64,000 bases of DNA from Minisyncoccota bacterium (lineage in GTDB: Bacteria; Patescibacteriota; Minisyncoccia; Phycocordibacterales; JABAAK01): the NCBI GenBank assembly GCA_965204115.1, contig OZ241963.1:306489-370488 (forward strand), in the 5' to 3' direction. Each line of letters opens with the position of its first letter. Position 1 is the first letter of the stretch. Positions 1,353-56,052 of the stretch are shown piece after piece. Below the pieces are notes generated by a model. That model was not told the origin of the DNA. It did not search any database and was given only the letters and a program-made list of their open reading frames with translations. Made by a program: the position numbers and the translations under genes.

Positions 1353-1560
1353 GCGTCGAGTTTCTAAGCTCGCTATCGCTCGCTAAGAACTCCCTGCCCG
1401 GGCTCGGCGACAATTTCGCTCCACTGCGTTCCGCGAAATCGTAGACCGCCTGCGCCTTTCGAATCCCAACGCAATGCGAAATACTATTCGCATTGCTCCC
1501 TACTCGCAGTGCAAATTCAATTGCACTGCTCCTGCCCAGGCTCAGCGACAACTCTAACTG

Positions 1561-1649
1561 CGGAGAGGGAGGGATTCGAACCCTCGGTGCGGGGTGAACC
1601 GCACACTCGTACTCCAAACGAGCGCCTTCGACCACTCAGCCACCTCTCC
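1561..1649 (-). tRNA. tRNA-Ser (anticodon GGA)
   Basis: The reverse complement gives GGAGAGGTGGCTGAGTGGTCGAAGGCGCTCGTTTGGAGTACGAG...GGTTCGAATCCCTCCCTCTCCG. It has a 7-bp acceptor stem, an anticodon stem CTCGT/ACGAG with loop TTGGAGT (anticodon GGA), a long variable arm GTGCGG-TTCACC-CCGCAC, and a T-arm GAGGG-TTCGAAT-CCCTC. No CCA is encoded. Confidence 0.85.
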
Positions 1650-3387: not shown

Positions 3388-4257
3388 CTATTCTCCCCCT
3401 TTGTTTGCAATAGATTGGAATGCTTTCAGGATTTCAACCGGGATAGCGAAGATGACGGTATTTGACTGATCGGAACTGAGGTCGTTGAGGGAATGGAGGG
3501 TGCGGAGGTGCAGCGATCCCTCTGACGCGGCAAGGATGGACGCGGCATCTGCGAGATTTTTTGAGGCAATTTTCTCACCCTCTGCCTTGATAATGACAGC
3601 GCGGCGCTCCCGCTCTGCTTCTGCCTCTCTCGCAAGAGTGCGCTTCATATCAGCCGGTAACTCAATGTGTTTCAAATCAACCGACTGCACTTTCACTCCC
3701 CATTTATCAGATGCGACATCAACAATTTTTTGTATCCGTTGCGACACCTCATCCCGCTTGGTCAGCAGCTCATCCAGCGTCACTTCGCCGACCACATCCC
3801 GCATCGTTGTCTGCGCTAATTGTGAAGTTGCCCGCGCGAAGTTCTCAACCTTCAGCACCGCCTTTTCAGCTGATTCAATATAAAAATACAGCACCGCGTT
3901 CACATTGATACTCACATTATCTTTCGTGATACAATCCTGATCCGGCACATCCACCACCTTGATACGCATATCAATAACGGTCATCTGCTGCACCCCGGGA
4001 AACACCCATCGCAGACCGGGTTGTCGCATGCCGGTATACTTTCCAAAAGTCAGTACCACCCCATTTTCATATTGATTAATGATATGCAATCCATACAGCA
4101 AAAAAGCAGTCAGTATTGCCGCCAGTACGCCGGCAACTTCGTTGGACAGCAGGCTGATTAGCAGGTAGGCAATTCCGGCACCAACTACTACAAATACCTG
4201 CCGTACAATCGCGGACTTTGCCACTTCCATACTTTGCTCTATTTCACTATCATTCAT
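3388..4257 (-). CDS. SPFH/band 7 (stomatin/prohibitin-like) membrane protein
   Basis: An N-terminal TM helix, then an SPFH core (VVLTFGKYTGMRQPGLRWVFPGVQQMTVIDMRIKVVDVP...) and a coiled-coil (REAEAERERRAVIIKAEGEKIASKN). The longest ORF extends to 4278; the likely start is MNDSEI at 4257. Confidence 0.8.
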   Translation of the reverse strand: MNDSEIEQSMEVAKSAIVRQVFVVVGAGIAYLLISLLSNEVAGVLAAILTAFLLYGLHIINQYENGVVLTFGKYTGMRQPGLRWVFPGVQQMTVIDMRIKVVDVPDQDCITKDNVSINVNAVLYFYIESAEKAVLKVENFARATSQLAQTTMRDVVGEVTLDELLTKRDEVSQRIQKIVDVASDKWGVKVQSVDLKHIELPADMKRTLAREAEAERERRAVIIKAEGEKIASKNLADAASILAASEGSLHLRTLHSLNDLSSDQSNTVIFAIPVEILKAFQSIANKGGE

Positions 4258-4295: not shown

Positions 4296-5288
4296 CTACA
4301 ATACCCCAAGTATTTGTTTTACCTTTGTCAGCCGCTTAGTGAAGAGGGTGTCTAGTTTTTTTCGGTCGTGTGCCAGTATTTTTTCAAGATATTTTGTATC
4401 GTTGCTGATTTTTTCATATGTTTCCCGTGCGTCTTTGAAGTATGTGAGGTATTGCTCCGCCAGCAATTCTTTCAGTTCTTTGTAGGTGATGTCTCCCTTG
4501 CTGCAGCGATTGACCACCGTACCGTATTCCTCGCGGGGCATTATTTTTTCAAGATATGTGCACGGCAGACAGGTTTCCACATTGATCGGTTCGCCCTTTG
4601 GTGTTGAGTCGGTAACAATACTCATTATTCGTTTGCGCAGCTCTGCCTCATCGGCAAAAATCGGCAGCGTGTTCCCTTTTGACTTGCTCATCTTCTCGCC
4701 GTCTAAACCGGGGATGACTGCAACCTCTTTCTGTATCTGTTCCTGAGGTTCCGTAAAGCACACTTCACGCGCGGTGTGGTTAAATTTACGTGCCATCTCT
4801 CGTGCCATCTCCACATGCTGCGCCTGATCCTGCCCTACCGGCACCACCTCAGCGTCGGCAATTAAAATATCCGCCGCCATGAGCGCAGGGTACAGAAATA
4901 CTCCCAATCCGACATTCTGCTTTTCCTGCGCCGCATCCTTATACGCGTGCCCGATGGTCAAAAAATTATGTTTCAGCATACACGCAATGATCCACATCAA
5001 CTCGGTTACCTGCGGAAAATCCGATTGCCGATATACCATTGACTTTTTTGGATCTATCCCCAGTGCGATGCTTGCTGCGAGTAAGTGCCGGCTGTTTTTT
5101 GATCGCTCTGCGGCACTTTGCGGCGCCTGCTCATCACTTAAGTCTGTCAATGCATGCAGATCAGCGATGAAAAAATACAATTCGCCGGCATCCTGTGCCT
5201 CTACCATTTGCCGTACTGCGCCGAAATAGTTCCCTATATGCAAATCTCCCGTCGGCTGCAGCCCTGTCAAAATCCGTTTTTTAGCCAT
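4296..5288 (-). CDS. trpS: tryptophanyl-tRNA synthetase
   Basis: TGLQPTGDLHIGNY (HIGH region) and KMSKS motif; 330 aa. Confidence 0.9.
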   Translation of the reverse strand: MAKKRILTGLQPTGDLHIGNYFGAVRQMVEAQDAGELYFFIADLHALTDLSDEQAPQSAAERSKNSRHLLAASIALGIDPKKSMVYRQSDFPQVTELMWIIACMLKHNFLTIGHAYKDAAQEKQNVGLGVFLYPALMAADILIADAEVVPVGQDQAQHVEMAREMARKFNHTAREVCFTEPQEQIQKEVAVIPGLDGEKMSKSKGNTLPIFADEAELRKRIMSIVTDSTPKGEPINVETCLPCTYLEKIMPREEYGTVVNRCSKGDITYKELKELLAEQYLTYFKDARETYEKISNDTKYLEKILAHDRKKLDTLFTKRLTKVKQILGVL

Positions 5289-5313: not shown

Positions 5314-7644
5314 TTACCTAATCCTCAGCACTTCCTCTGCGACATAGGCACCCTCTTCGGTGTTGGCGATTGCGCGGATGGTAACTTCTCGTTCGTTTTT
5401 GTCCAGTAACTTACTCGGGTCAAAGCTGAGCAGCGGGAGGTGTGATGATCCAATGAGGATGCTGTTGACATAGAATTCGTACTGGACATTTCGCACCGGC
5501 AACTTTGACAGGACGATAGTGGTGATCTCATCCAGATAGACGGTTGACCGAGGTGCTTTGATGGAAAAGTTTTTTTCAGTGTTTCCTCCGTTGAAGTCGT
5601 AATCGCCCTCTATCTCATTTTCCTCCAGCCAATTCTGCACGCCGTATTCCCAATACTCGTATTGCGGATCCTCTAAAGGATCATGCGGGCTTTGTGTCGG
5701 TCTGTCTCGCCGGATGTAATGCAGTATTGTGTGTGGGTCATCGGCGTCTATCCTGCCGAGTACTATTTCCGGAGACAGTTCCGGCGGAATAGTATTTCGT
5801 GTAAAGTATGACCCCGGCTCTCCATATTGCCCGGATACTGTTGTAACTATCTGCCTGAGTAGTGGCGCGAGATAAAACCCTGCAGCGTTGTTTTCCAGCG
5901 GTGTGTTATCCGAATTACCCGCCCATATCAGTACGACAATATCGGGAGAATATCCGACTATCCAAATATCACGAGAGTTGTTTGTTGTTCCGGTTTTCAC
6001 CGCGGTCGGCGGGTCGGTTATGTACATCGCTGAACCTCTGCCAAACACCGGCGCTCGCGCATCATCATCAAAGAGCATGTCGGTGATGTCTTGTGCTACA
6101 TTTCGTGCTAATACTCGCTTTTCTGCTTCCTTTTCTCCGTACTTCCATACATACGGCACCAGCACACCTTCGTTTGCAAATACACCATACGCCTGTGCCA
6201 TCTCCAGTGGTGATACTTCCGCACCGCCGAGCACTAAGCTTAGTCCATAGTGATTTTGTCCGTGTATCAGCGAGGTGATACCCATTTTCTTTGCCTGCCG
6301 AATCACCTCCGGCACATCCGCGAGATATAGTACCTTCACGGCCGGCACATTGATAGATTGCGCGAGCGCGTTCCGCAGTGATATCGGCCCGACAAAATTC
6401 CCGGTGTAGTTAATGGGTGAGTAACAGCCGCTTTTGGTGCTTTCAAACTGATCTTTTTCACAGAATGCGGTAAACTGTGTCGGCACATCGTATACAATTG
6501 TCCGCGGTGTGAGCCCTTTCTCAATCGCCTTGGCGTACGCTATCGGCTTGAACGTTGATCCCGGCTGCCGAAGCGAGGTGATGATGTTCACCCGCCCATC
6601 CACGGTATTGTCAAAAAAGTCCCGTGACCCGACCATAGAAAGAATCTCACCTGTTTTTGCTGAAAGCACAACGGACGCTATGTTGCTAACCTCAAACTGC
6701 TCTTCCAGATTTGTTTCTATAAATTCCCGCATCATCTTCTCAACCTCCTCCTGCAGTGCGACATCAATAGTTGTCTTGATCTGCTGCCCTTCAATATTTT
6801 TTAGTCCGGCACCATGCTCTTTCTCTAACTGCTCTTTTACGAAGAACACAAAATGCGGCGCGCGAATAGAAAAAGTGTCTTGGCTCTGAAAGTATACCTC
6901 CTCCGCCCGTGCCGCGCGATACTCATCCCTTGTTATGAGGTTGTGTCTCAGCATTAATTGTAGCACCTGATTTTTCCGCGCTTCAAGTGCTTTTCTGTTC
7001 CGCCCGTACGGCGAGTAGTAGGTCGGCGCTTTTGGAATTGCCGCGAGGTATGCTGACTCCGCAATCGTCAGCTCGCTCGCCTTTTTCCCGTAGAATGATT
7101 TGCTCGCTTCTGCCACTCCATAGGAGACACCGCCGTAGGATATGGTGTTGAGGTACATTTCAAGAATCTCCTCTTTCCCCAGCTGTTGCTCCAGTTTTAT
7201 CGCCAGCAGAAACTCTTTCATCTTTCGCTCTATCTTTTTCTCGGTGGTAAGAAACACATTTTTAACTACCTGCTGCGTGATCGTTGACCCACCCTGACTA
7301 AAGGACAGTGTGCGGATATTGTTGATGAGTGCGCGCAAAAACGCGTCAATACGAATGCCGTTATGCTCAAAAAACAGGTGGTCCTCTATTGCGATGGTCG
7401 CCTCAATCACATGCTCTGATATTTCCCCGTACGGCACAAAAGTCCGCTTCTCGTTAACAGAAAAATCAAACAAGAATTCGTCGTTCCGGTCGGTGAGTAT
7501 GACGGACTGCTTAGACGCGACATTGCGTATATCCACACCGGGCAATGGAGTAAATGTGTAGAATAGTGTTACATACCCCGCAGTAAAAAATGCCGCCGAC
7601 AGCGACAGGAGAGCGACATTTTTAATAGTGAGAAACTTTTTCAC
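5314..7644 (-). CDS. class A penicillin-binding protein (bifunctional transglycosylase/transpeptidase, PBP1A-like)
   Basis: An N-terminal TM anchor, a GT51 motif region (EDHLFFEHNGIRIDAFLRALINN, GGSTITQQVVKN), and a transpeptidase domain with STFKP and KTGT motifs. Confidence 0.9.
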   Translation of the reverse strand: MKKFLTIKNVALLSLSAAFFTAGYVTLFYTFTPLPGVDIRNVASKQSVILTDRNDEFLFDFSVNEKRTFVPYGEISEHVIEATIAIEDHLFFEHNGIRIDAFLRALINNIRTLSFSQGGSTITQQVVKNVFLTTEKKIERKMKEFLLAIKLEQQLGKEEILEMYLNTISYGGVSYGVAEASKSFYGKKASELTIAESAYLAAIPKAPTYYSPYGRNRKALEARKNQVLQLMLRHNLITRDEYRAARAEEVYFQSQDTFSIRAPHFVFFVKEQLEKEHGAGLKNIEGQQIKTTIDVALQEEVEKMMREFIETNLEEQFEVSNIASVVLSAKTGEILSMVGSRDFFDNTVDGRVNIITSLRQPGSTFKPIAYAKAIEKGLTPRTIVYDVPTQFTAFCEKDQFESTKSGCYSPINYTGNFVGPISLRNALAQSINVPAVKVLYLADVPEVIRQAKKMGITSLIHGQNHYGLSLVLGGAEVSPLEMAQAYGVFANEGVLVPYVWKYGEKEAEKRVLARNVAQDITDMLFDDDARAPVFGRGSAMYITDPPTAVKTGTTNNSRDIWIVGYSPDIVVLIWAGNSDNTPLENNAAGFYLAPLLRQIVTTVSGQYGEPGSYFTRNTIPPELSPEIVLGRIDADDPHTILHYIRRDRPTQSPHDPLEDPQYEYWEYGVQNWLEENEIEGDYDFNGGNTEKNFSIKAPRSTVYLDEITTIVLSKLPVRNVQYEFYVNSILIGSSHLPLLSFDPSKLLDKNEREVTIRAIANTEEGAYVAEEVLRIR

Positions 7645-8811: not shown

Positions 8812-8919
8812 ACTAGTATGTTGCTTTGCGAGTAAGGTGCGACTGTCAAGTCGCACACTAAAATGACTAGTATGTTGCTTTGCGAGTAATGTGCGACTGT
8901 CAAGTCGCACACTAAAATG
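8812..8919. repeat. two tandem 54-bp direct repeats, each carrying the palindrome GTGCGACTGTCAAGTCGCAC
   Basis: Units 8812-8865 and 8866-8919 differ by 1 nt. A further palindrome GGTGTGCAATACAATGCACACC lies at 8942-8962. Confidence 0.85.
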
Positions 8920-8970
8920 AATTACATTTCTCTTCACGAGTAGGTGTGCATTGTATTGCACACCGCAGGT

Positions 8971-18615: not shown

Positions 18616-18798
18616 ATGCTTACAGTATATCGCTATCTGGGAGCTCTGTACTTGGTATCTGCCACAGCCACCGCACGACAAGGGATGATGATTGAGGAGA
18701 TATGAGGCAGATACTACGGCTTTTTAATAGAGGGCAATTTGAGCTGCTGAATACCCTGTAAAATGGTAAAAACCTTGATTTTACTGCCTTTCTTGGGG

Positions 18799-18827
18799 TT
18801 GACATATTGCTCCATAAATGATATAAT
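18799..18827 (+). promoter_or_regulatory. consensus sigma70-type promoter TTGACA-17nt-TATAAT
   Basis: TTGACA at 18799-18804, a 17-nt spacer, TATAAT at 18822-18827. Predicted TSS is about 18834, upstream of the protease gene. Confidence 0.6.
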
Positions 18828-18897
18828 ACATATAAGTTACGGTGCCGGGGAGGGGCATGATGCATCTAACTACATTACACCATACATACACCATATT

Positions 18898-19965
18898 ATG
18901 ATTACCACATATTCTGATTACCACACAAAGAGAAAAATTACTACGGGGCGACTGATATACCTACTTACCACTCTGGGCGTTGTTTTGCTTGTATTCCTGT
19001 TCTCAGTTGGCTACCGAGCAGTAACCGCTTACACCCAGTCCCTGCACGAACAAATTGAGGGTATTAAAACACAGCACCAAGATGAGATTGACACCCTGAT
19101 GGAGCAGCAAAAAGCGGCTGTTGAGGCAGCAGAGGAAGCGAAATGGGTTGCTACGAAAGAGGCACAAGTAGTGAAGGCGGCTATGGAGCGCGCACAAAGA
19201 GAGGTGAAAGCAGCTGCTATCACCCCTATTTCGACCGACACCAGTGTTGGCAGCAGCACAGACCTCACGGCAGCAGAGATCGAGCGATTGTCTCGTTCAA
19301 TTGTAGAAATTAAGTGTAGTCGTATGGCCGGTTCCGGCTTCCTGTTCAGAATACCGAATAAGTCTGGTGGTGTACGAAATGCCGTATTTACCAACAACCA
19401 CACTATTGAGAAGGATATGCGTGCCGGAACGCCGTCGTGTTATGTGGATAATGACTTTTTCCCGACCGCAGCACCTACTGGAGTTATTGACATCAGACCG
19501 GATAAGGATAAGATGACAGTGTTTAACCATTATGCTGACTTTGTGGCAGCAGACCTGCACTTGTTGCACGGCGATGACCGAAAGAAGCTTGACGAAAGGT
19601 ACCGCGCGGGAGAAAGGTACCTTAGCCAGCTCGATTTCTTTTCTTTGGACACGATGCCATTGTGTCCGGCCGACCACCCTACAGGGAGTGTTGTATATGC
19701 GATGGGATACCCAACATACTCACGAGGAAACATTGTCGTAGTGAAGAACAGCATTATCGGAAAAGACAACATGATCAAAAACCTTCCTCATGATGACTAT
19801 CTCACATCAGCAAGTATCGATTCTGGGATGTCCGGTGGAGCAGCTTTTTCTAAAACAAAGAACGGAGAAATCTGCCTGCTCGGCATAAACACCTGGGTAC
19901 TCAAAGGCACCTACGAAAATGTCGGTGTTATCCAGAACATCCACAACATCATGTACTCGAAATAA
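18898..19965 (+). CDS. membrane-anchored trypsin-like (S1/chymotrypsin fold) serine protease
   Basis: A TM anchor and a coiled-coil region, then a protease domain with GDSGGP-like SIDSGMSGGAAF and His region FTNNHTI. The longest ORF starts at 18763; the likely start is MITTYSDYH at 18898. Confidence 0.7.
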   Translation: MITTYSDYHTKRKITTGRLIYLLTTLGVVLLVFLFSVGYRAVTAYTQSLHEQIEGIKTQHQDEIDTLMEQQKAAVEAAEEAKWVATKEAQVVKAAMERAQREVKAAAITPISTDTSVGSSTDLTAAEIERLSRSIVEIKCSRMAGSGFLFRIPNKSGGVRNAVFTNNHTIEKDMRAGTPSCYVDNDFFPTAAPTGVIDIRPDKDKMTVFNHYADFVAADLHLLHGDDRKKLDERYRAGERYLSQLDFFSLDTMPLCPADHPTGSVVYAMGYPTYSRGNIVVVKNSIIGKDNMIKNLPHDDYLTSASIDSGMSGGAAFSKTKNGEICLLGINTWVLKGTYENVGVIQNIHNIMYSK

Positions 19966-49129: not shown

Positions 49130-49999
49130 GTGAAGTTTAATCAGGCAAAGCACTTATTTTTAGAGCATATTGAGTTGGGGCTCGGGCGGTCATTGAAAAC
49201 TGTTGAAAATTATGACCGTTATTTAAATCAATTTGCCAACCTGACCGGCGTAAAAACGATCGGCCAGATAACCGAGCCGGTGGTGCACACCTTTCGTCTC
49301 AAGCTTAATCGAAAAGGCAGCCTCAAAAAAACAACCCAAAATTACTACCTCATTGCCTTGCGGATGTTTCTGAAATATCTGGAAACTACCGGCAAACAAT
49401 CTCTCTCGCCGAACACTGTGGTGCTGGCAAAAACCGGCAGTCGAGAGATAGATGTGATTACTACCGATGAGTTGAGGCGGCTGTTTGACGCTACGGACGG
49501 CGGGAAAATACAAGATTTCCGTGACCGTGCGATTATTGAGACCCTCTTCTCAACCGGATTGCGTGTCTCAGAGCTGATAATGCTTCCGCGGGACATTGAC
49601 CTGACAGCGAAAGAAGTAGCCGTCCGTGGCAAAGGCGAAAAAGTGCGTGTGGTCTTTTTTTCTGACCCGGCAATAGAAGCGATCCATATCTACCAAAAGA
49701 AACGAAAAGATATGTCCCCCGCTCTCTTTGCTGGGGAGCGGAGTAAAGGACATCTCACCGCCCGCACCATAGAGCGTATTATTGCAAACCGCGCTCGGCA
49801 GGCCGGCATCTCAAAAAAAGTAACGCCGCACATCCTCCGTCACATGTTTGCCACTACCCTTCTTTCAAACGGTGCGGACATTCGTGCTGTTCAGGAGATG
49901 CTCGGGCACAGTAATATTGCCACCACCCAGGTTTACACGCACATCACTAACAAGCAGCTGAAAGAGGTGCATAAACATTTTCTCCAGAAGCCAAAATAA
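49130..49999 (+). CDS. tyrosine site-specific recombinase (XerC/XerD family)
   Basis: An N-terminal SAM-like domain, then the catalytic R...HxxR...Y region (HILRHMFATTLLSNGADIRAVQEMLGHSNIATTQVYTHI). Confidence 0.85.
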   Translation: MKFNQAKHLFLEHIELGLGRSLKTVENYDRYLNQFANLTGVKTIGQITEPVVHTFRLKLNRKGSLKKTTQNYYLIALRMFLKYLETTGKQSLSPNTVVLAKTGSREIDVITTDELRRLFDATDGGKIQDFRDRAIIETLFSTGLRVSELIMLPRDIDLTAKEVAVRGKGEKVRVVFFSDPAIEAIHIYQKKRKDMSPALFAGERSKGHLTARTIERIIANRARQAGISKKVTPHILRHMFATTLLSNGADIRAVQEMLGHSNIATTQVYTHITNKQLKEVHKHFLQKPK

Positions 50000-50254: not shown

Positions 50255-50458
50255 TTATAAGTTCAGAAGTTCAGAAATTTTCTCGTCTTCCTCCCTTGCG
50301 GGGAGGCTGTAAAGTATATCAAGTGCAATAAAGGCCCCATAATCTTCTTGATCCATACTGTAGAGGCGCTGAAAGAAATCTTCATCAGATATAGGGTCTT
50401 TTATCCCACAGAAGAGCTCTTCCGCTATGTGTGTCCGAAACAATGCAAAGTGGTTCAT
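50255..50458 (-). CDS. hypothetical small acidic protein (67 aa)
   Basis: ORF only; directly upstream of and co-oriented with the 76-aa ORF. Confidence 0.2.
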   Translation of the reverse strand: MNHFALFRTHIAEELFCGIKDPISDEDFFQRLYSMDQEDYGAFIALDILYSLPAREEDEKISELLNL

Positions 50459-50511
50459 GTATAACCCTCCTTACACCTGAGTATACCACGGACGGGGTGT
50501 ATACTGCAACT

Positions 50512-51306
50512 ATGAGGATATATTCTTGGAATGTGAACGGGTTGCGGGCAGTGCACAACAAAGGCGCGCTCGCGCAGTTTATTACAAAAGAAGATCCTGA
50601 TGTTATTCTTTTTCAGGAGATCAAGGCGAGAGAAGAGCAGTTGCCGGAAGGGTTACAGGATCCGAATTACATTCATTTCTACAATTCAGCGGAAAAAGCC
50701 GGCTATTCCGGCACGGCGGCTTGGGTACACACCCGTAACAAAAAAAAATTCAAAGATTTTTCAAAAGGGATGCCCAAATGGAAGGATACTGAAGGGCGTA
50801 TTGTGCAGTGTGAATTTGCCGACAAAAAAATCCTTATCACGGTCTATGTCCCGAACGGCGGCAAATCAGATGAGGCGTATCAGGAGAAACTACAATTCCT
50901 TGCCACCCTTGCTGCATACGCTAAAAAATTGCAGAAAGACGGCTATCAAGTCATCATCGGCGGTGATTTCAATGTCGCCCGCAGTGAGCTTGACCTCGCG
51001 AAGCCGGAAAAACACCGCGACCACACCCACTTTAACCCCGAAGTCCGCGCTGCTATGGAAAAATTCATCACTGTAGAGCTTGTAGACACCTACCGCTCCC
51101 GCAATCCGGATGAAGCAGGTGCCTACACCTACTGGGATAACTTCAGCTTCTCCCTCCCTCGCGGTACGAAGCCCCGCGATGTCAACGAAGGGTGGCGGCT
51201 TGATTACCTCCTTGCAGACCCGACCACTGACAAGAATATCAAACAGGCGGTCATTCATCAAAATATCTTCGGCTCTGACCATTGCCCGATTTCTGTGACA
51301 CTTTAA
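50512..51306 (+). CDS. xth: exodeoxyribonuclease III (ExoIII/APE1 family AP endonuclease)
   Basis: MRIYSWNVNGLRA, DVILFQEIK and FGSDHCPISV motifs. The longest ORF starts at 50431. Confidence 0.85.
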   Translation: MRIYSWNVNGLRAVHNKGALAQFITKEDPDVILFQEIKAREEQLPEGLQDPNYIHFYNSAEKAGYSGTAAWVHTRNKKKFKDFSKGMPKWKDTEGRIVQCEFADKKILITVYVPNGGKSDEAYQEKLQFLATLAAYAKKLQKDGYQVIIGGDFNVARSELDLAKPEKHRDHTHFNPEVRAAMEKFITVELVDTYRSRNPDEAGAYTYWDNFSFSLPRGTKPRDVNEGWRLDYLLADPTTDKNIKQAVIHQNIFGSDHCPISVTL

Positions 51307-51323
51307 TAGTTGTCAGAATTATT

Positions 51324-52064
51324 TTACTTGAGATATACCGTGATTGTATCAACATAGCGCTCCCTATCCTCAATATCAGATTGATTTACCCAATACTCTT
51401 GTGTAACAACTGCCTCTTCGGTTTCTCCTATAATTCTTTTTCTCCAGCCACGCAGCCCCGCAATGCTGCCTTCGCCATACAACCGAGCATCATCAAACTC
51501 CAGATCACCTTCTTTTTCTGACAAGGATTTGATCTCTAAATAATCATCAGTCCAACCCTCTGATGCCGTTGGGTATCCTGTGAACTGAAGTGCTCTGAGT
51601 ACCCTTTCATCCTCATGTATCAACTCTTTTTTAATTGTTATTTGTTCGGGCGTTACGCCGTCCACCACAATAAATTCATCTTGAGGGGGGTATCTGTCAT
51701 AGTCATCATAATTGTGTCGGAAATCACTTTCATTGTAGAATTCCTCATGCTTATTAATAAGTGTACACGGCTCCCCTTTATGTATTACAAGTATTTTTGA
51801 TATGGCAACATCCTTGCCGACATACCCTCCTGAATCTTTACTGCCATACCAATCTTTCTCAGGATTATTTGTAATAATCTCCGATTTTTCACTCTTTAAT
51901 TCTTCTAAAGATATTACCGGAATATTCATTCCTTCAAATTGAAAATACTCTTTTTCTTTTTCCTGCTTATTCCCTCCGCTTTCCATAGCACTGCCGTGCC
52001 TACTTGGTCGTCTTTCTCTTCTCCTTTGCCGTGGTGGTCGTGAAATTTTACCTTCAATATTCAT
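51324..52064 (-). CDS. hypothetical protein with an Arg-rich N-terminus; AT-rich gene
   Basis: 246 aa with no TM, an N-terminal RPPRQRRRERRPSR, and visibly lower GC than its neighbours. Confidence 0.45.
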   Translation of the reverse strand: MNIEGKISRPPRQRRRERRPSRHGSAMESGGNKQEKEKEYFQFEGMNIPVISLEELKSEKSEIITNNPEKDWYGSKDSGGYVGKDVAISKILVIHKGEPCTLINKHEEFYNESDFRHNYDDYDRYPPQDEFIVVDGVTPEQITIKKELIHEDERVLRALQFTGYPTASEGWTDDYLEIKSLSEKEGDLEFDDARLYGEGSIAGLRGWRKRIIGETEEAVVTQEYWVNQSDIEDRERYVDTITVYLK

Positions 52065-52110
52065 GTGATAGATAGTGTGTGTTTATATTTCTCTACTGCC
52101 TATATATATT

Positions 52111-52142
52111 ATTTTACCCCCCCCCCCTCGATTTTTTGTCAA
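52111..52142 (-). promoter_or_regulatory. putative phase-variable promoter: TTGACA, a spacer containing poly-G(11), then TAAAAT
   Basis: Minus strand reads TTGACAaaaaatcgaGGGGGGGGGGGTAAAAT, with the C11 run at 52117-52127 on the plus strand. The spacer is 20 nt now and would be 17 nt with G8. Confidence 0.5.
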
Positions 52143-52162
52143 TCTTTTCCACAAAACTTCTT

Positions 52163-53947
52163 TTATCGTTTCTGTATCACCTTGAGGAAAGTGTCGTGCG
52201 ATACGGTCACCCGTCCGGCTGCGCCCATTTTTTGTTTTCCTTTCTTTTGCTTTTCGCGGAGTTTCATTTTTCGGGTGATGTCACCGCCGTAGAGTTTTGC
52301 CGTTACATCTTTGCGGAGAGCGGAGAGGGTTTTTGAGGCGACAATGCGTCCGTCCATTTTTGCCTGTATTTTTATCGCAAACAGTGCTCGAGGTATAGTT
52401 TCGTATAAGATGTTCACTAATTCCCGCGCTTCCCGCTCGCCACGGGTTCGGGACACAATACTCGCGAACGCCGGAAACTCTTCTTCGGCGAGGAGGATGT
52501 CCAGTCGGGTCACCTGTGCATCTCGCTGCCCGATTCTTTTGTATGATAATGACGCGTACCCCGAACTTACACTTTTTAGCTTGTCAAAAAATTGCCGCAT
52601 CATTTCCCGCAGTGGCATCTCACCCTGTACAATACATCGATGGTTTTTAAAATCGTTGACCCGCAACACAAACCCCTCATACTCTCCAACCAGTTGCGAT
52701 ACCGCTGATACCTGTTCCGCCGGCGCGATGATGTCCACTGCTACCCACGGTTCAGTAACTGACTCTATCTCGTGCTTATCAGGAAACTTAGACGGTGTTG
52801 CGATCACTGCTGTCTCACCGTTCTTTTTAGTGACCGTGAAATCGGTGCTCGGCGCGGTAACCACCAGCTCTATCCCCGCCTGCCGGCGTGCTCGTTCAGT
52901 AATAATCTCAAAATGCAGCATTCCCAAAAAACCACACCGAAACCCCTTCCCGAGTGCTGTTGATCGCTCCTCTTCGTAGGTGAATGCCGCGTCTACCAGC
53001 CGCATTTCCTGCAAGGTGTGGTGGAGGGTGTTGTAGTCGTTCGCGTCCTGCGGATAGAGCGACACCCAGATGACCGGCGCTACCTCTTGGTATCCCGGGA
53101 ACGGTGCTGCGCTTGACCGCGCGCGAGTAATGGTATCACCAACAACTGCGATGCCGGGCTCTTTAATGCCCGTTGTGAAGTAGCCGATCATCCCTTCATC
53201 TATCGTTTCGGCAGACACCATATCCGGCTTGCATACGCCGACGTCCTTCAGTGTAAATGCGGTGTCTATTCCCTGCAGCATCAATCGCTCACCTTTTTTA
53301 AAGGAACCGCCGAACACTCGCGCGAATGCGTTGATGCCGGTGTGGTTGGTGTAGGAAAAGTCAAATACCAAAGCACGGGCATCTTTTTCGGTGTCTTTTC
53401 GCGGTGCGGGGAATTTTTTTATAATCTCCTGCAGTAACGCCTCCACCCCTTCGCCTGTTTTTCCTGAGACCAACAGCACTTCTTCCGGATCGCAGTCCAG
53501 CAAATCCGCAACCTCAAGTGATACCTCGTCTGTACGCGCATGGTTCATATCTATCTTTGTCAGCACCGGAAGGATGACCAAATCCAACTCCTGCGCCATC
53601 TCCAGCACTGACAAAGTTTGTGCCTGCACCCCCTGACTCGCGTCAACCAGCAGTAGCACCCCTTCCACCGCCCGCAGTGATCGCGAAACTTCGTATGAAA
53701 AATCTATGTGTCCCGGCGTGTCGATGATGTTCAGCGTATACGATACGCTATCCTGCTGATACTGAATGGACACCGGCTGCATCTTGATGGTGATTCCCCG
53801 CTCCCGCTCAATATCCATCCTGTCCAGCACCTGCTCCTGCATTTTTCTCTTTTCTATTGTTTCGGTGTATTCAAGCAGCCGGTCGGCAAGGGTTGACTTC
53901 CCGTGATCCACGTGCGCAATGATTGAAAAATTTCTTATGGTTTCCAT
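52163..53947 (-). CDS. lepA: translation elongation factor 4 (LepA)
   Basis: IRNFSIIAHVDHGKSTLADRL G1 motif and a LepA C-terminal domain; 594 aa. Confidence 0.95.
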   Translation of the reverse strand: METIRNFSIIAHVDHGKSTLADRLLEYTETIEKRKMQEQVLDRMDIERERGITIKMQPVSIQYQQDSVSYTLNIIDTPGHIDFSYEVSRSLRAVEGVLLLVDASQGVQAQTLSVLEMAQELDLVILPVLTKIDMNHARTDEVSLEVADLLDCDPEEVLLVSGKTGEGVEALLQEIIKKFPAPRKDTEKDARALVFDFSYTNHTGINAFARVFGGSFKKGERLMLQGIDTAFTLKDVGVCKPDMVSAETIDEGMIGYFTTGIKEPGIAVVGDTITRARSSAAPFPGYQEVAPVIWVSLYPQDANDYNTLHHTLQEMRLVDAAFTYEEERSTALGKGFRCGFLGMLHFEIITERARRQAGIELVVTAPSTDFTVTKKNGETAVIATPSKFPDKHEIESVTEPWVAVDIIAPAEQVSAVSQLVGEYEGFVLRVNDFKNHRCIVQGEMPLREMMRQFFDKLKSVSSGYASLSYKRIGQRDAQVTRLDILLAEEEFPAFASIVSRTRGEREARELVNILYETIPRALFAIKIQAKMDGRIVASKTLSALRKDVTAKLYGGDITRKMKLREKQKKGKQKMGAAGRVTVSHDTFLKVIQKR

Positions 53948-55626: not shown

Positions 55627-55673
55627 GGGTCAATGAAAACAGGTGCCTATTCGGCACCTGTTTTCATTGACCC
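55627..55673. other. perfect 21-bp stem-loop (GGGTCAATGAAAACAGGTGCC / GGCACCTGTTTTCATTGACCC)
   Basis: It lies between the rnpB 3' end and the murJ promoter, with no U tract on either strand. Confidence 0.7.
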
Positions 55674-56013
55674 AAACGATAAGCCGGATTCTGTGTCCGC
55701 GCTTTGCGCGGATGGCAATCATTTATCTTGGCACACCGTTACCGGTGCGCTCTGTGCGGCACTCCGTGACATCGCTGCCTCGGCACGGCCTTGCACCCGG
55801 GTAGGAATTTAGCCGTTTCACCGCCGTGTCGCCACGGCGCTCACCTCAAAGAGGTGCCTTCACTTCTCAGATCAGGCGTCACTGCTCGCATCCCTCGGTT
55901 TTCACCGGACGGGCGTTACCCGCTACCTTGCTCCGCCTCAAGAGAGACGGGAGTGTCCGGACTTTCCTCTCGCACCACGCATAGCGCGCAGTACGAGCGA
56001 TTACCTATCTGGG
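55671..56013 (-). ncRNA. rnpB: RNase P RNA (bacterial type A)
   Basis: The minus strand has GAGGAAAGTCCGGACACTCC (P4 5' strand), GGTAACGCC, and the 3' ACAGAATCCGGCTTATCG (P4 3' strand). The 340-nt region has no ORF. An extended -10 TGGTATACT sits at 56021-56029. Confidence 0.8.
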
Positions 56014-56052
56014 TACAGATAGTATACCAAAAATAGCATGTTCTCGCCACTG

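Follow-up and report, generated by a model that had tools for sequence, protein, structure and literature searches.

Can the length of a single homopolymer set the output of a promoter in a bacterium that has few other means of control? Members of the Patescibacteria, or candidate phyla radiation (CPR), live attached to hosts on which they depend, with tiny genomes and few regulators, and the question is raised by a run of 11 G residues (G11) lying between what look like the -35 and -10 hexamers of a promoter in a Minisyncoccota bacterium. The run is found on the minus strand of a 64,000-nucleotide (nt) stretch of contig OZ241963.1 (positions 306,489 to 370,488), here called the window and numbered from its first letter, within the 98-nt gap between lepA (52163-53947) and an open reading frame (ORF) for a 246-amino-acid protein (51324-52064), referred to below as hyp. 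From comparative analysis of the sequence, we regard the run as a credible contingency-type promoter tract, a known kind of device in a new phylum, and give an even chance to the more specific reading that it is a spacer-length contingency switch. The phylum is described as new because full-text literature searches found no report dealing with repeat-mediated phase variation in Patescibacteria/CPR bacteria, the single paper that mentions both subjects being about DNA methylation in archaea.

In the mechanism that we propose, the G11 homopolymer, which is of a kind prone to slippage, would account for most of the -35 to -10 spacer in a promoter of the sigma-70 type (TTGACA, 20 nt, TAAAAT), which serves an accessory gene that has been exchanged horizontally and was inserted between lepA and xth of a Paceibacteria genome. 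When G's are gained or lost in replication, the distance from the -35 to the -10 would change; in the alleles sampled, 20 nt in the window and 21 nt in an orthologous locus (L002), the two boxes would be out of register and the promoter of low or no activity, while alleles of G7-G9 would bring the spacing to 16-18 nt (17 nt with G8) and turn the gene up. The outcome would be a heritable, reversible on/off or volume switch, that is, a contingency locus. Three things are inferred here: use of both hexamers by RNA polymerase, slippage of the tract often enough to be useful, and dependence of expression on its length.

Anatomy of the candidate promoter

Read on the minus strand from the lepA stop codon TAA (52165-52163), the gap runs through aagaagttttgtggaaaaga to the hexamer TTGACA (52142-52137), which matches the -35 consensus at 6/6 positions, then to aaaaatcga (52136-52128), the non-repeat part of the spacer, and to the G11 homopolymer itself (52127-52117; C11 on the plus strand), which is presumed to be prone to slippage. 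The -10 hexamer TAAAAT (52116-52111) directly abuts the tract and is followed by aatatatata (52110-52101), ggcagtagagaaatataaacacacactatctatcac and the hyp ATG at 52064. The 46 nt between the -10 and the ATG (52065-52110) form an AT-rich stretch with (TA)4-5 at 52101-52110 and (AC)3, which would be the 5' leader if this distal promoter fires.

At the sequence level, TTGACA and TAAAAT both flank the tract, directly upstream of the 246-amino-acid gene, and the candidate spacer comes to 9 + 11 = 20 nt. This is the layout described by the initial annotation of the window (TTGACA, 9 nt, G11 and TAAAAT, with a 20-nt spacer), and it can be read back exactly, as can the (TA)4 placed there at 52101-52108. 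The further remark that losing three G's would leave a 17-nt spacer is sound as arithmetic (20 - 3), and tracts of G9, G8 and G7 would by the same count give spacers of 18, 17 and 16 nt. In our own promoter scan, with spacers of 13-23 allowed, the site is an 11/12 match with a spacer of 20; a standard promoter scan restricted to spacers of 16-18 does not list it. Chance would be expected to put a perfect TTGACA that close to the tract (within 30 nt) in <1% of cases.

A rare tract kept across diverged loci

The C11/G11 run is the sole run of G or C longer than 6 within the 64-kb window, in which the run-length counts end at 6 (two C runs and two G runs) with 11 as the next value, and about 0.02 runs of at least 11 would be expected there under a model of independent, identically distributed bases. 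A pooled set of 1.31 Mb of related DNA, made up of the window and 167 fetched loci that are nearly all Paceibacteria lepA neighbourhoods, contains six G/C runs of at least 9, three of which are orthologous copies of this tract, the other three being G18 in L066, G10 in L119 and G9 in L120. A TAnnnT hexamer stands directly after the G run in four of the six and at +1 in a fifth, against a background of 0.015; counted by independent loci, two of three have TAnnnT directly after the run (p of about 7e-4 by our own calculation). All of the promoter-associated tracts carry their G's on the sense strand, and all abut TAnnnT.

The orthologous copies were reached through the protein. Exact matching of the 246-amino-acid protein, of LepA and of the 220-amino-acid public gene call led to no contig, and relatives came from homology instead. 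A homology search of 5.8 billion proteins gave two matches, and a third sequence came from the 90%-identity cluster of one of them. P0001 is the source genome's own public gene call, on a 661,662-bp NCBI/ENA contig, while P0003 (94% amino acid identity to the 246-amino-acid protein) lies on L002 (ENA ERZ25068633) and P0002 (58% amino acid identity) on L001 (ENA ERZ23495130). L002 reads TTGACA-aaaaatc-G14-TAGAAT, then 41 nt to the ATG, with a spacer of 21 nt (G14 at L002:6732-6745); L001 starts atcggac-G14-a-TACAGT, then 28 nt to the ATG (G14 at L001:8-21), and its -35 is not visible because the contig ends 7 nt 5' of the tract. The length of the tract differs among relatives: the run stands at the same site before the same gene as G11 in the window and G14 in both L001 and L002. 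The window tract is moreover interrupted (G-A-G11), the A at 52128 breaking a run that is continuous in L002.

Around the tract, conservation is uneven. A 14-nt block that includes TTGACA (TTGACAAAAAATCG) is identical in the window and L002 despite a 4-nt indel directly 5' of it, and the flanking DNA is 76-90% identical to the window in L002 and 67% in L001 at the nucleotide level. The stretch from the tract to the ATG is the least conserved (73-75% identity between the window and L002), with slippage-type indels in (TA)n and (AC)n, and the distance from the end of the tract to the ATG is 52 nt in the window, 47 nt in L002 and 35 nt in L001.

Poly-G runs are a known class of sequencing artefact, and the exact length of a homopolymer is subject to error on every platform. 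That two-colour-chemistry poly-G, or a homopolymer miscall in sequencing or assembly, produced the tract is nonetheless barely tenable. The G18 run of L066, from a metagenome-assembled genome (MAG) covered at about 1.9x, is perhaps an example, whereas the tract before hyp lies at an orthologous position in the 661,662-bp contig, in ERZ25068633 and in ERZ23495130, which derive from different samples, and has unique sequence on both sides in two of the three assemblies. As the source of the tract, an artefact is effectively refuted by these three independent assemblies, with exact counts uncertain by +/-1. The orthologous position, the changed length and the 67-90% identity of the surroundings together rule it out and argue that the run has been maintained; an unselected run of 11 nt would rarely survive such divergence, and judged by this comparison the tract is evolutionarily maintained and non-random. 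The break of the short-read contig L001 at 7 nt from the tract is weak evidence that points towards a switch.

Protein-alignment scans of genome, metagenome and viral contigs found no further copies of the 246-amino-acid gene, so the comparison of tracts is limited to three loci. Upstream of a distant homologue, P0004 (L083), there is no G tract, and the P0005 and P0006 loci (L084-L087) have no G/C run of at least 8 anywhere. LepA-based scans (160 loci) found no copy of the tract in the close relatives L003, L088 and L089, where the slot between lepA and xth is empty, or in L004, where it contains other cargo.

Two further G/C runs in the pooled set are recorded here for their own sake. The G18 run (L066:3047-3064) adjoins a terminator-like hairpin between convergent genes and has no promoter context. 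In L049 (5962-5986), an intergenic hairpin that is probably a terminator has a C8 run and a G8 run as its arms, with 9 nt between them.

A second poly-G promoter

A G10 run followed by TATACT in L119 (3563-3587) and a G9 run followed by TATAAT in L120 (6045-6068) precede a gene whose product is a membrane-anchored Peripla_BP_6 solute-binding protein. The two loci, from distant Paceibacteria, are orthologous to each other (76-84% identical) and unrelated to the hyp locus, and each -10 stands 9 nt before the ATG, within the 7-11 nt usual for the genome of the window. Weak, TTG-type -35-like hexamers are found 19 nt (L119) and 18 nt (L120) from the -10, a difference that is exactly the difference in tract length. 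Among the collected loci there were no orthologues of the solute-binding-protein gene with a short G run from which the tract might have grown.

Set beside the tract before hyp, these loci suggest a wider reading, which we offer tentatively, as possible rather than probable: poly-G runs 5' of the -10 in Paceibacteria may be a recurrent class of contingency switch, grown from a GG-extended -10 and controlling both accessory cassette genes and surface solute-binding proteins (L119/L120), which would be the first repeat-mediated phase variation to be described in these ultra-small, host-dependent bacteria.

Separately, an element of some 33-42 nt (GAGTGAGATAGCGAAGYGTCTCAGTACCCGCAC, with a TGAGA/TCTCA inverted repeat) is conserved and recurs in both loci, at 3490-3522, 5026-5061 and 5228-5269 of L119 and at 5910-5950, 5996-6018 and 7519-7553 of L120; a small dispersed repeat and a terminator-like element are both possible identities for it.

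Spacer preference and the usual promoters of the genome

Across the 1.31-Mb pool, pairs of the form TTGAC[AT]-N-TAnnnT peak at N=16 (54 pairs) and N=17 (62), other spacings having 7-33, mostly 15-25. With strong -10 hexamers only, there are 17, 27 and 9 pairs at 16, 17 and 18 nt and 2-10, mostly 3-5, elsewhere; the histogram from the window taken singly was too sparse for a preference, whereas the pool gave a clear one. Judged by these pairs, canonical -35/-10 promoters with a 16-17-nt optimum are in use in the clade, and the sharpness of the peak implies that spacer length should matter there. Perfect TTGACA-17-TATAAT promoters occur at 18799 in the window and at 986 in L001, the latter before a neighbouring cassette gene. 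The window example (18799-18862, plus strand) is followed by a leader with a Shine-Dalgarno-like GGGGAGGGG and by ATGATG at about 18858; it lies inside a called ORF (18763-19965), so that the gene probably starts at about 18858.

Several observations weigh against a switch, the first of them being this same optimum. Both measurable alleles (20 and 21 nt) lie beyond the 16-18-nt range, from which two to five slippage steps would be needed, and neither of the two is an ON-range allele, a sample size with which ON alleles in the population remain compatible; homopolymer counts in assemblies may also err by about one base. The switch put forward in the initial annotation accordingly holds up in part: the position of the tract between -35 and -10, its different length in L001 and L002, the spacer optimum of the clade and the L119/L120 loci speak for it, and the two spacers out of range speak against it.

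A second group of adverse points concerns how transcription usually appears to start in this genome. The usual promoter motif, GGTATA[ACG]T (GGTATAMT), ends 7-11 nt before the ATG and has no conserved -35, examples being found at the gene starts 5305, 8703, 16374, 26429, 47331, 55601, 56937 and 58539 (minus), and the RNase P RNA gene likewise carries ttTGGTATACT about 5 nt upstream. Shine-Dalgarno-like motifs are present in 6/45 long ORFs, which, together with the closeness of the motif to the ATG, indicates that most transcripts are apparently leaderless; a full-text literature search found no paper in which leaderless promoters and Patescibacteria are mentioned together. As G's 5' of the -10 are thus the norm of the genome, the poly-G may be a run-away GG and its -10 may fire without a -35.

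On that alternative, which we think unlikely but by no means negligible, the tract would be the expanded GG of a -35-independent promoter: hypermutable, with TTGACA incidental or vestigial, its length having little effect or a graded one and making no switch. The many gene starts and the RNase P RNA gene with a GGTATAMT that lacks a conserved -35 agree with it, as do the uniform sense-strand orientation of the promoter-associated tracts and the G11 directly 5' of TAAAAT, which places G's before TAnnnT just as the usual promoter does. L119 and L120 likewise show the genome-typical order of -10, 9 nt and ATG with weak -35-like hexamers, and spacers of 20-21 nt would be non-functional if a -35 were required, yet hyp is under purifying selection, with a ratio of non-synonymous to synonymous substitution rates (dN/dS) of 0.26. 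The alternative fits less well with the roughly 15 GG-TATA[ACG]T promoters in the window, each of which has at most four G's, so that the expansion is exceptional and no outcome of drift, or with the perfect TTGACA, which is unlikely to stand beside the tract by chance and is unchanged in L002. Uninterrupted runs of 9-14 also persist over 16-33% nucleotide divergence at two loci, which argues for selection on the run itself, and TAAAAT, TAGAAT and TACAGT are weaker than the TATACT of the genome, weak -10 hexamers usually needing a -35.

Other features of the site are also unlike those of the usual promoters. The distance from the -10 to the ATG is 46 nt in the window, 41 nt in L002 and 28 nt in L001 rather than 7-11 nt, and the hyp ATG has no Shine-Dalgarno sequence in its 46-nt leader, an arrangement atypical for the genome. 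A terminator scan found no intrinsic terminator in 52065-52162 (RNA fold z = +0.59), and with no terminator after lepA, read-through may give basal expression of hyp whatever the tract length. The control of hyp by the tract, as claimed in the initial annotation, is borne out as far as position goes, the tract being directly upstream of hyp, and is weakened by the plausibility of read-through or of a -35-independent route. The product is an unusual target as well: phase-variable genes usually encode surface proteins or restriction systems, and hyp encodes a protein of no known function without a signal peptide, membrane segment or hydrophobic segment.

A lepA terminator, a riboswitch or a structured leader in the gap was also considered, and was rejected on negative terminator, fold and Rfam scans, the last giving no covariance-model match at E-values up to 1 in 51900-52300.

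If read-through suffices, the promoter might be decaying or silent, having arrived with the cassette and then been inactivated by expansion of the tract, with hyp transcribed mainly by read-through from lepA or from a weak proximal start and tract length being noise. We consider this improbable. It would account for the spacers of 20 and 21 nt and for the stretch between tract and ATG being the fastest-evolving at the locus, and it is in keeping with the lack of a terminator or structured RNA between lepA and hyp, with the varying cargo of a slot that is a hotspot and with the TACTAT of L002, which at 7 nt before the ATG has the typical leaderless position. The proximal -10 candidates are, however, inconsistent across loci (CACTAT in the window, TACTAT in L002, TATAAG in L001) and none has a GG prefix, whereas the distal G run with its TAnnnT is present in all three; a dead homopolymer should moreover have been broken or lost over such divergence, not kept at 11-14.

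Elsewhere in the window, the RNase P RNA (class A, 114 bits; 55664-56016, minus strand) and tRNA-Ser(GGA) (1560-1649, minus strand) are the only known RNA genes. Between two minus-strand genes, positions 8812-8946 hold a tandem repeat of a 54-nt unit in 2-2.4 copies, the first two of which are 98% identical, each unit containing the inverted repeat GTGCGACT...AGTCGCAC.

The putatively controlled gene and its genomic slot

The hyp gene encodes, on the minus strand, an acidic protein with an Arg-rich N-terminal tail and an internal duplication. Its description in the initial annotation as AT-rich and Arg-rich is accurate: its GC content is 0.40, against 0.49-0.52 in lepA and xth, and the N-terminus (RPPRQRRRERRPSRH) has an isoelectric point of 12 over residues 1-26. 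The public gene call, P0001, has 220 amino acids and begins at Met27, leaving out this 26-residue extension; the extension is nevertheless conserved in P0002 and P0003 as MNI[ED]xKISRPPRQRRR, which supports the ATG at 52064 as the start and makes it probable that the longer ORF is real. The duplicated module of the family is WYGGxNSGGxVG...FNxSSFRHxxD, and the family is very small, with four matches among 1.84 billion cluster representatives, one of them the gene's own call. No match to hyp was found in Pfam, PHROG, PADLOC or PDB sequences, and its AlphaFold2 (AF2) model (predicted local distance difference test score, pLDDT, of 78.9) has no fold match.

Compared between the window and L002 (6793-7533), the DNA of hyp shows 96% identity and that of the flanking genes 76-90%. 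Synonymous divergence (dS) is 0.10 for hyp and 0.47-1.23 for its neighbours, in which dN/dS is 0.03-0.10 as against the value given above for hyp; the block of high identity extends from about 52084 to 51217 and includes the last ~90 nt of xth. The low dS relative to the flanks suggests recent gene exchange between lineages that are otherwise about 86% identical. An accessory, AT-rich and recently exchanged target is, on this analysis, the profile typical of contingency-locus cargo.

The nearest relatives of LepA are in Candidatus Kaiserbacteria/Paceibacterota MAGs, among them closed chromosomes of 641-724 kb, so the CPR-like character assigned to the genome in the initial annotation holds; LepA identity is 90% in L003, 87% in L004, 73% in L005 and 69% in L006. 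The order on the minus strand is RNase P RNA, murJ, lepA (encoding EF4, upstream of hyp and co-oriented with it), the tract and hyp; then come xth, of the exonuclease III family (50431-51306, plus strand), which is convergent with hyp and whose 3' end bounds the variable slot, and a gene for an XerC/D-like tyrosine recombinase (49130-49999).

What lies between lepA and xth differs from genome to genome. The closest species, L003 (5783-5803), has neither gene nor tract there, just 17 nt separating the stop codons of lepA and xth, and the same is true of its copies from metagenomes, L088 and L089. In L004 (5783-6700) the slot contains two unrelated genes on the other strand, for a 187-amino-acid protein with a DTGA motif and an 87-amino-acid protein, and in L001 it contains the hyp homologue and an extra 703-bp cassette (L001:812-1576), which has its own perfect TTGACA-17-TATAAT promoter, encodes a 133-amino-acid protein with a hydrophobic, signal-peptide-like start and lies between direct repeats of 30 nt (87% identical) that copy the 3' end of xth. 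Repeats of this sort are what site-specific insertion into that end would be expected to leave, and the gap (51217-52162) is, by this comparison of its contents, a hotspot for small accessory cassettes.

A tract near the left edge of an inserted segment, in a slot with evident cassette turnover and about 2 kb from a tyrosine recombinase gene, could instead be a binding site, a recombination site or a cassette junction, or could act through DNA structure, as a G-quadruplex, an i-motif or a poly(dG)-poly(dC) block or insulator. We think any of these very improbable. A single-run, three-tetrad intramolecular G-quadruplex needs at least 15 G's, for which G11 and G14 are too short, and there are no further G runs nearby. 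The scar left by insertion in L001 repeats the 3' end of xth and has no poly-G, the tracts in L119 and L120 sit in an ordinary promoter with no sign of insertion, and the recombinase gene is a conserved XerC/D-like housekeeping gene (96% amino acid identity, dN/dS 0.03). We also considered whether the intergenic DNA next to lepA is left over from the 3' end of xth, as an att scar, and rejected this, the similarity between the intergenic DNA and xth being no better than that of shuffled sequence.

Should the tract before hyp prove to be a spacer-length switch, CPR bacteria would share the cheap, regulator-free bet-hedging device of mucosal pathogens, and functions exposed to fluctuating selection, such as host or phage interaction, could be proposed for both the 246-amino-acid family and the solute-binding protein. 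Should its length prove neutral, what would have been documented is the promoter grammar of the lineage, namely leaderless GGTATAMT promoters and a minority of canonical -35/17/-10 promoters.

Comparison with known systems

In Bordetella, the fim tract sets the distance between the site of an activator, BvgA, and the -10. The promoter C-stretches of fim2 (10-15 nt) and fim3 (13-18 nt) are polymorphic between strains and sister species, interrupted alleles (C6TC3, C9TC8) are on record, and tracts that overlap promoters are classed as those lying 21-80 nt before the start codon (PMC1891110). Computational searches for candidate phase-variable tracts also use length polymorphism of intergenic tracts among orthologues as their standard criterion (PMC1891110). 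The tract described here resembles those of fim2, fim3 and fimX in being a long promoter homopolymer that is polymorphic in length and has an interrupted allele (G-A-G11 as against G14), and the distances to the ATG in the window, L002 and L001 fall within the 21-80-nt class. It differs in its upstream partner, which is a consensus -35 hexamer with no known activator.

The porA and opc genes of Neisseria have a G/C run of about 9-14 nt between the -35 and -10, abutting the -10 and variable between strains, as at this locus; the details of the porA poly-G promoter tract of N. meningitidis are reportedly those of van der Ende in 1995. In Neisseria, transcription follows the spacing, and both switching and expression have been measured, whereas at this locus both would be predictions from sequence. 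For the poly-C tract of opc in N. meningitidis, recovered clones are reported in which 11C had become 12C or 14C (PMC6389960, citing Sarkari 1994). The Neisseria targets are outer-membrane proteins of a host-adapted pathogen, in contrast to the cytoplasmic-looking protein of a CPR bacterium, and Neisseria strains are commonly within one or two steps of 16-18 nt, while the measurable alleles here are 2-5 nt beyond the range.

Shorter tracts offer a more cautious parallel. No switching was detected for the promoter poly-A tract (5-6 A) of nspA in N. meningitidis (PMC6389960), and a poly-T tract in the sabA promoter of H. pylori appears in a published listing (PMC2715451). Both are homopolymers upstream of the -10 that tune transcription, as this tract would, and may represent stable alleles rather than fast switches; they are, however, short A/T runs or act through DNA bending, unlike the long G run here, which should slip much more readily.

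A further comparison is with the genome's own leaderless promoters. GGTATAMT promoters share with the tract promoter the G's immediately 5' of TAnnnT, but in them the G's number 2-4, the -10 is stronger (TATACT), the -35 is lacking and there is hardly any leader, whereas the tract promoter combines 11 G's and a weaker -10 with a perfect -35 and a 46-nt leader.

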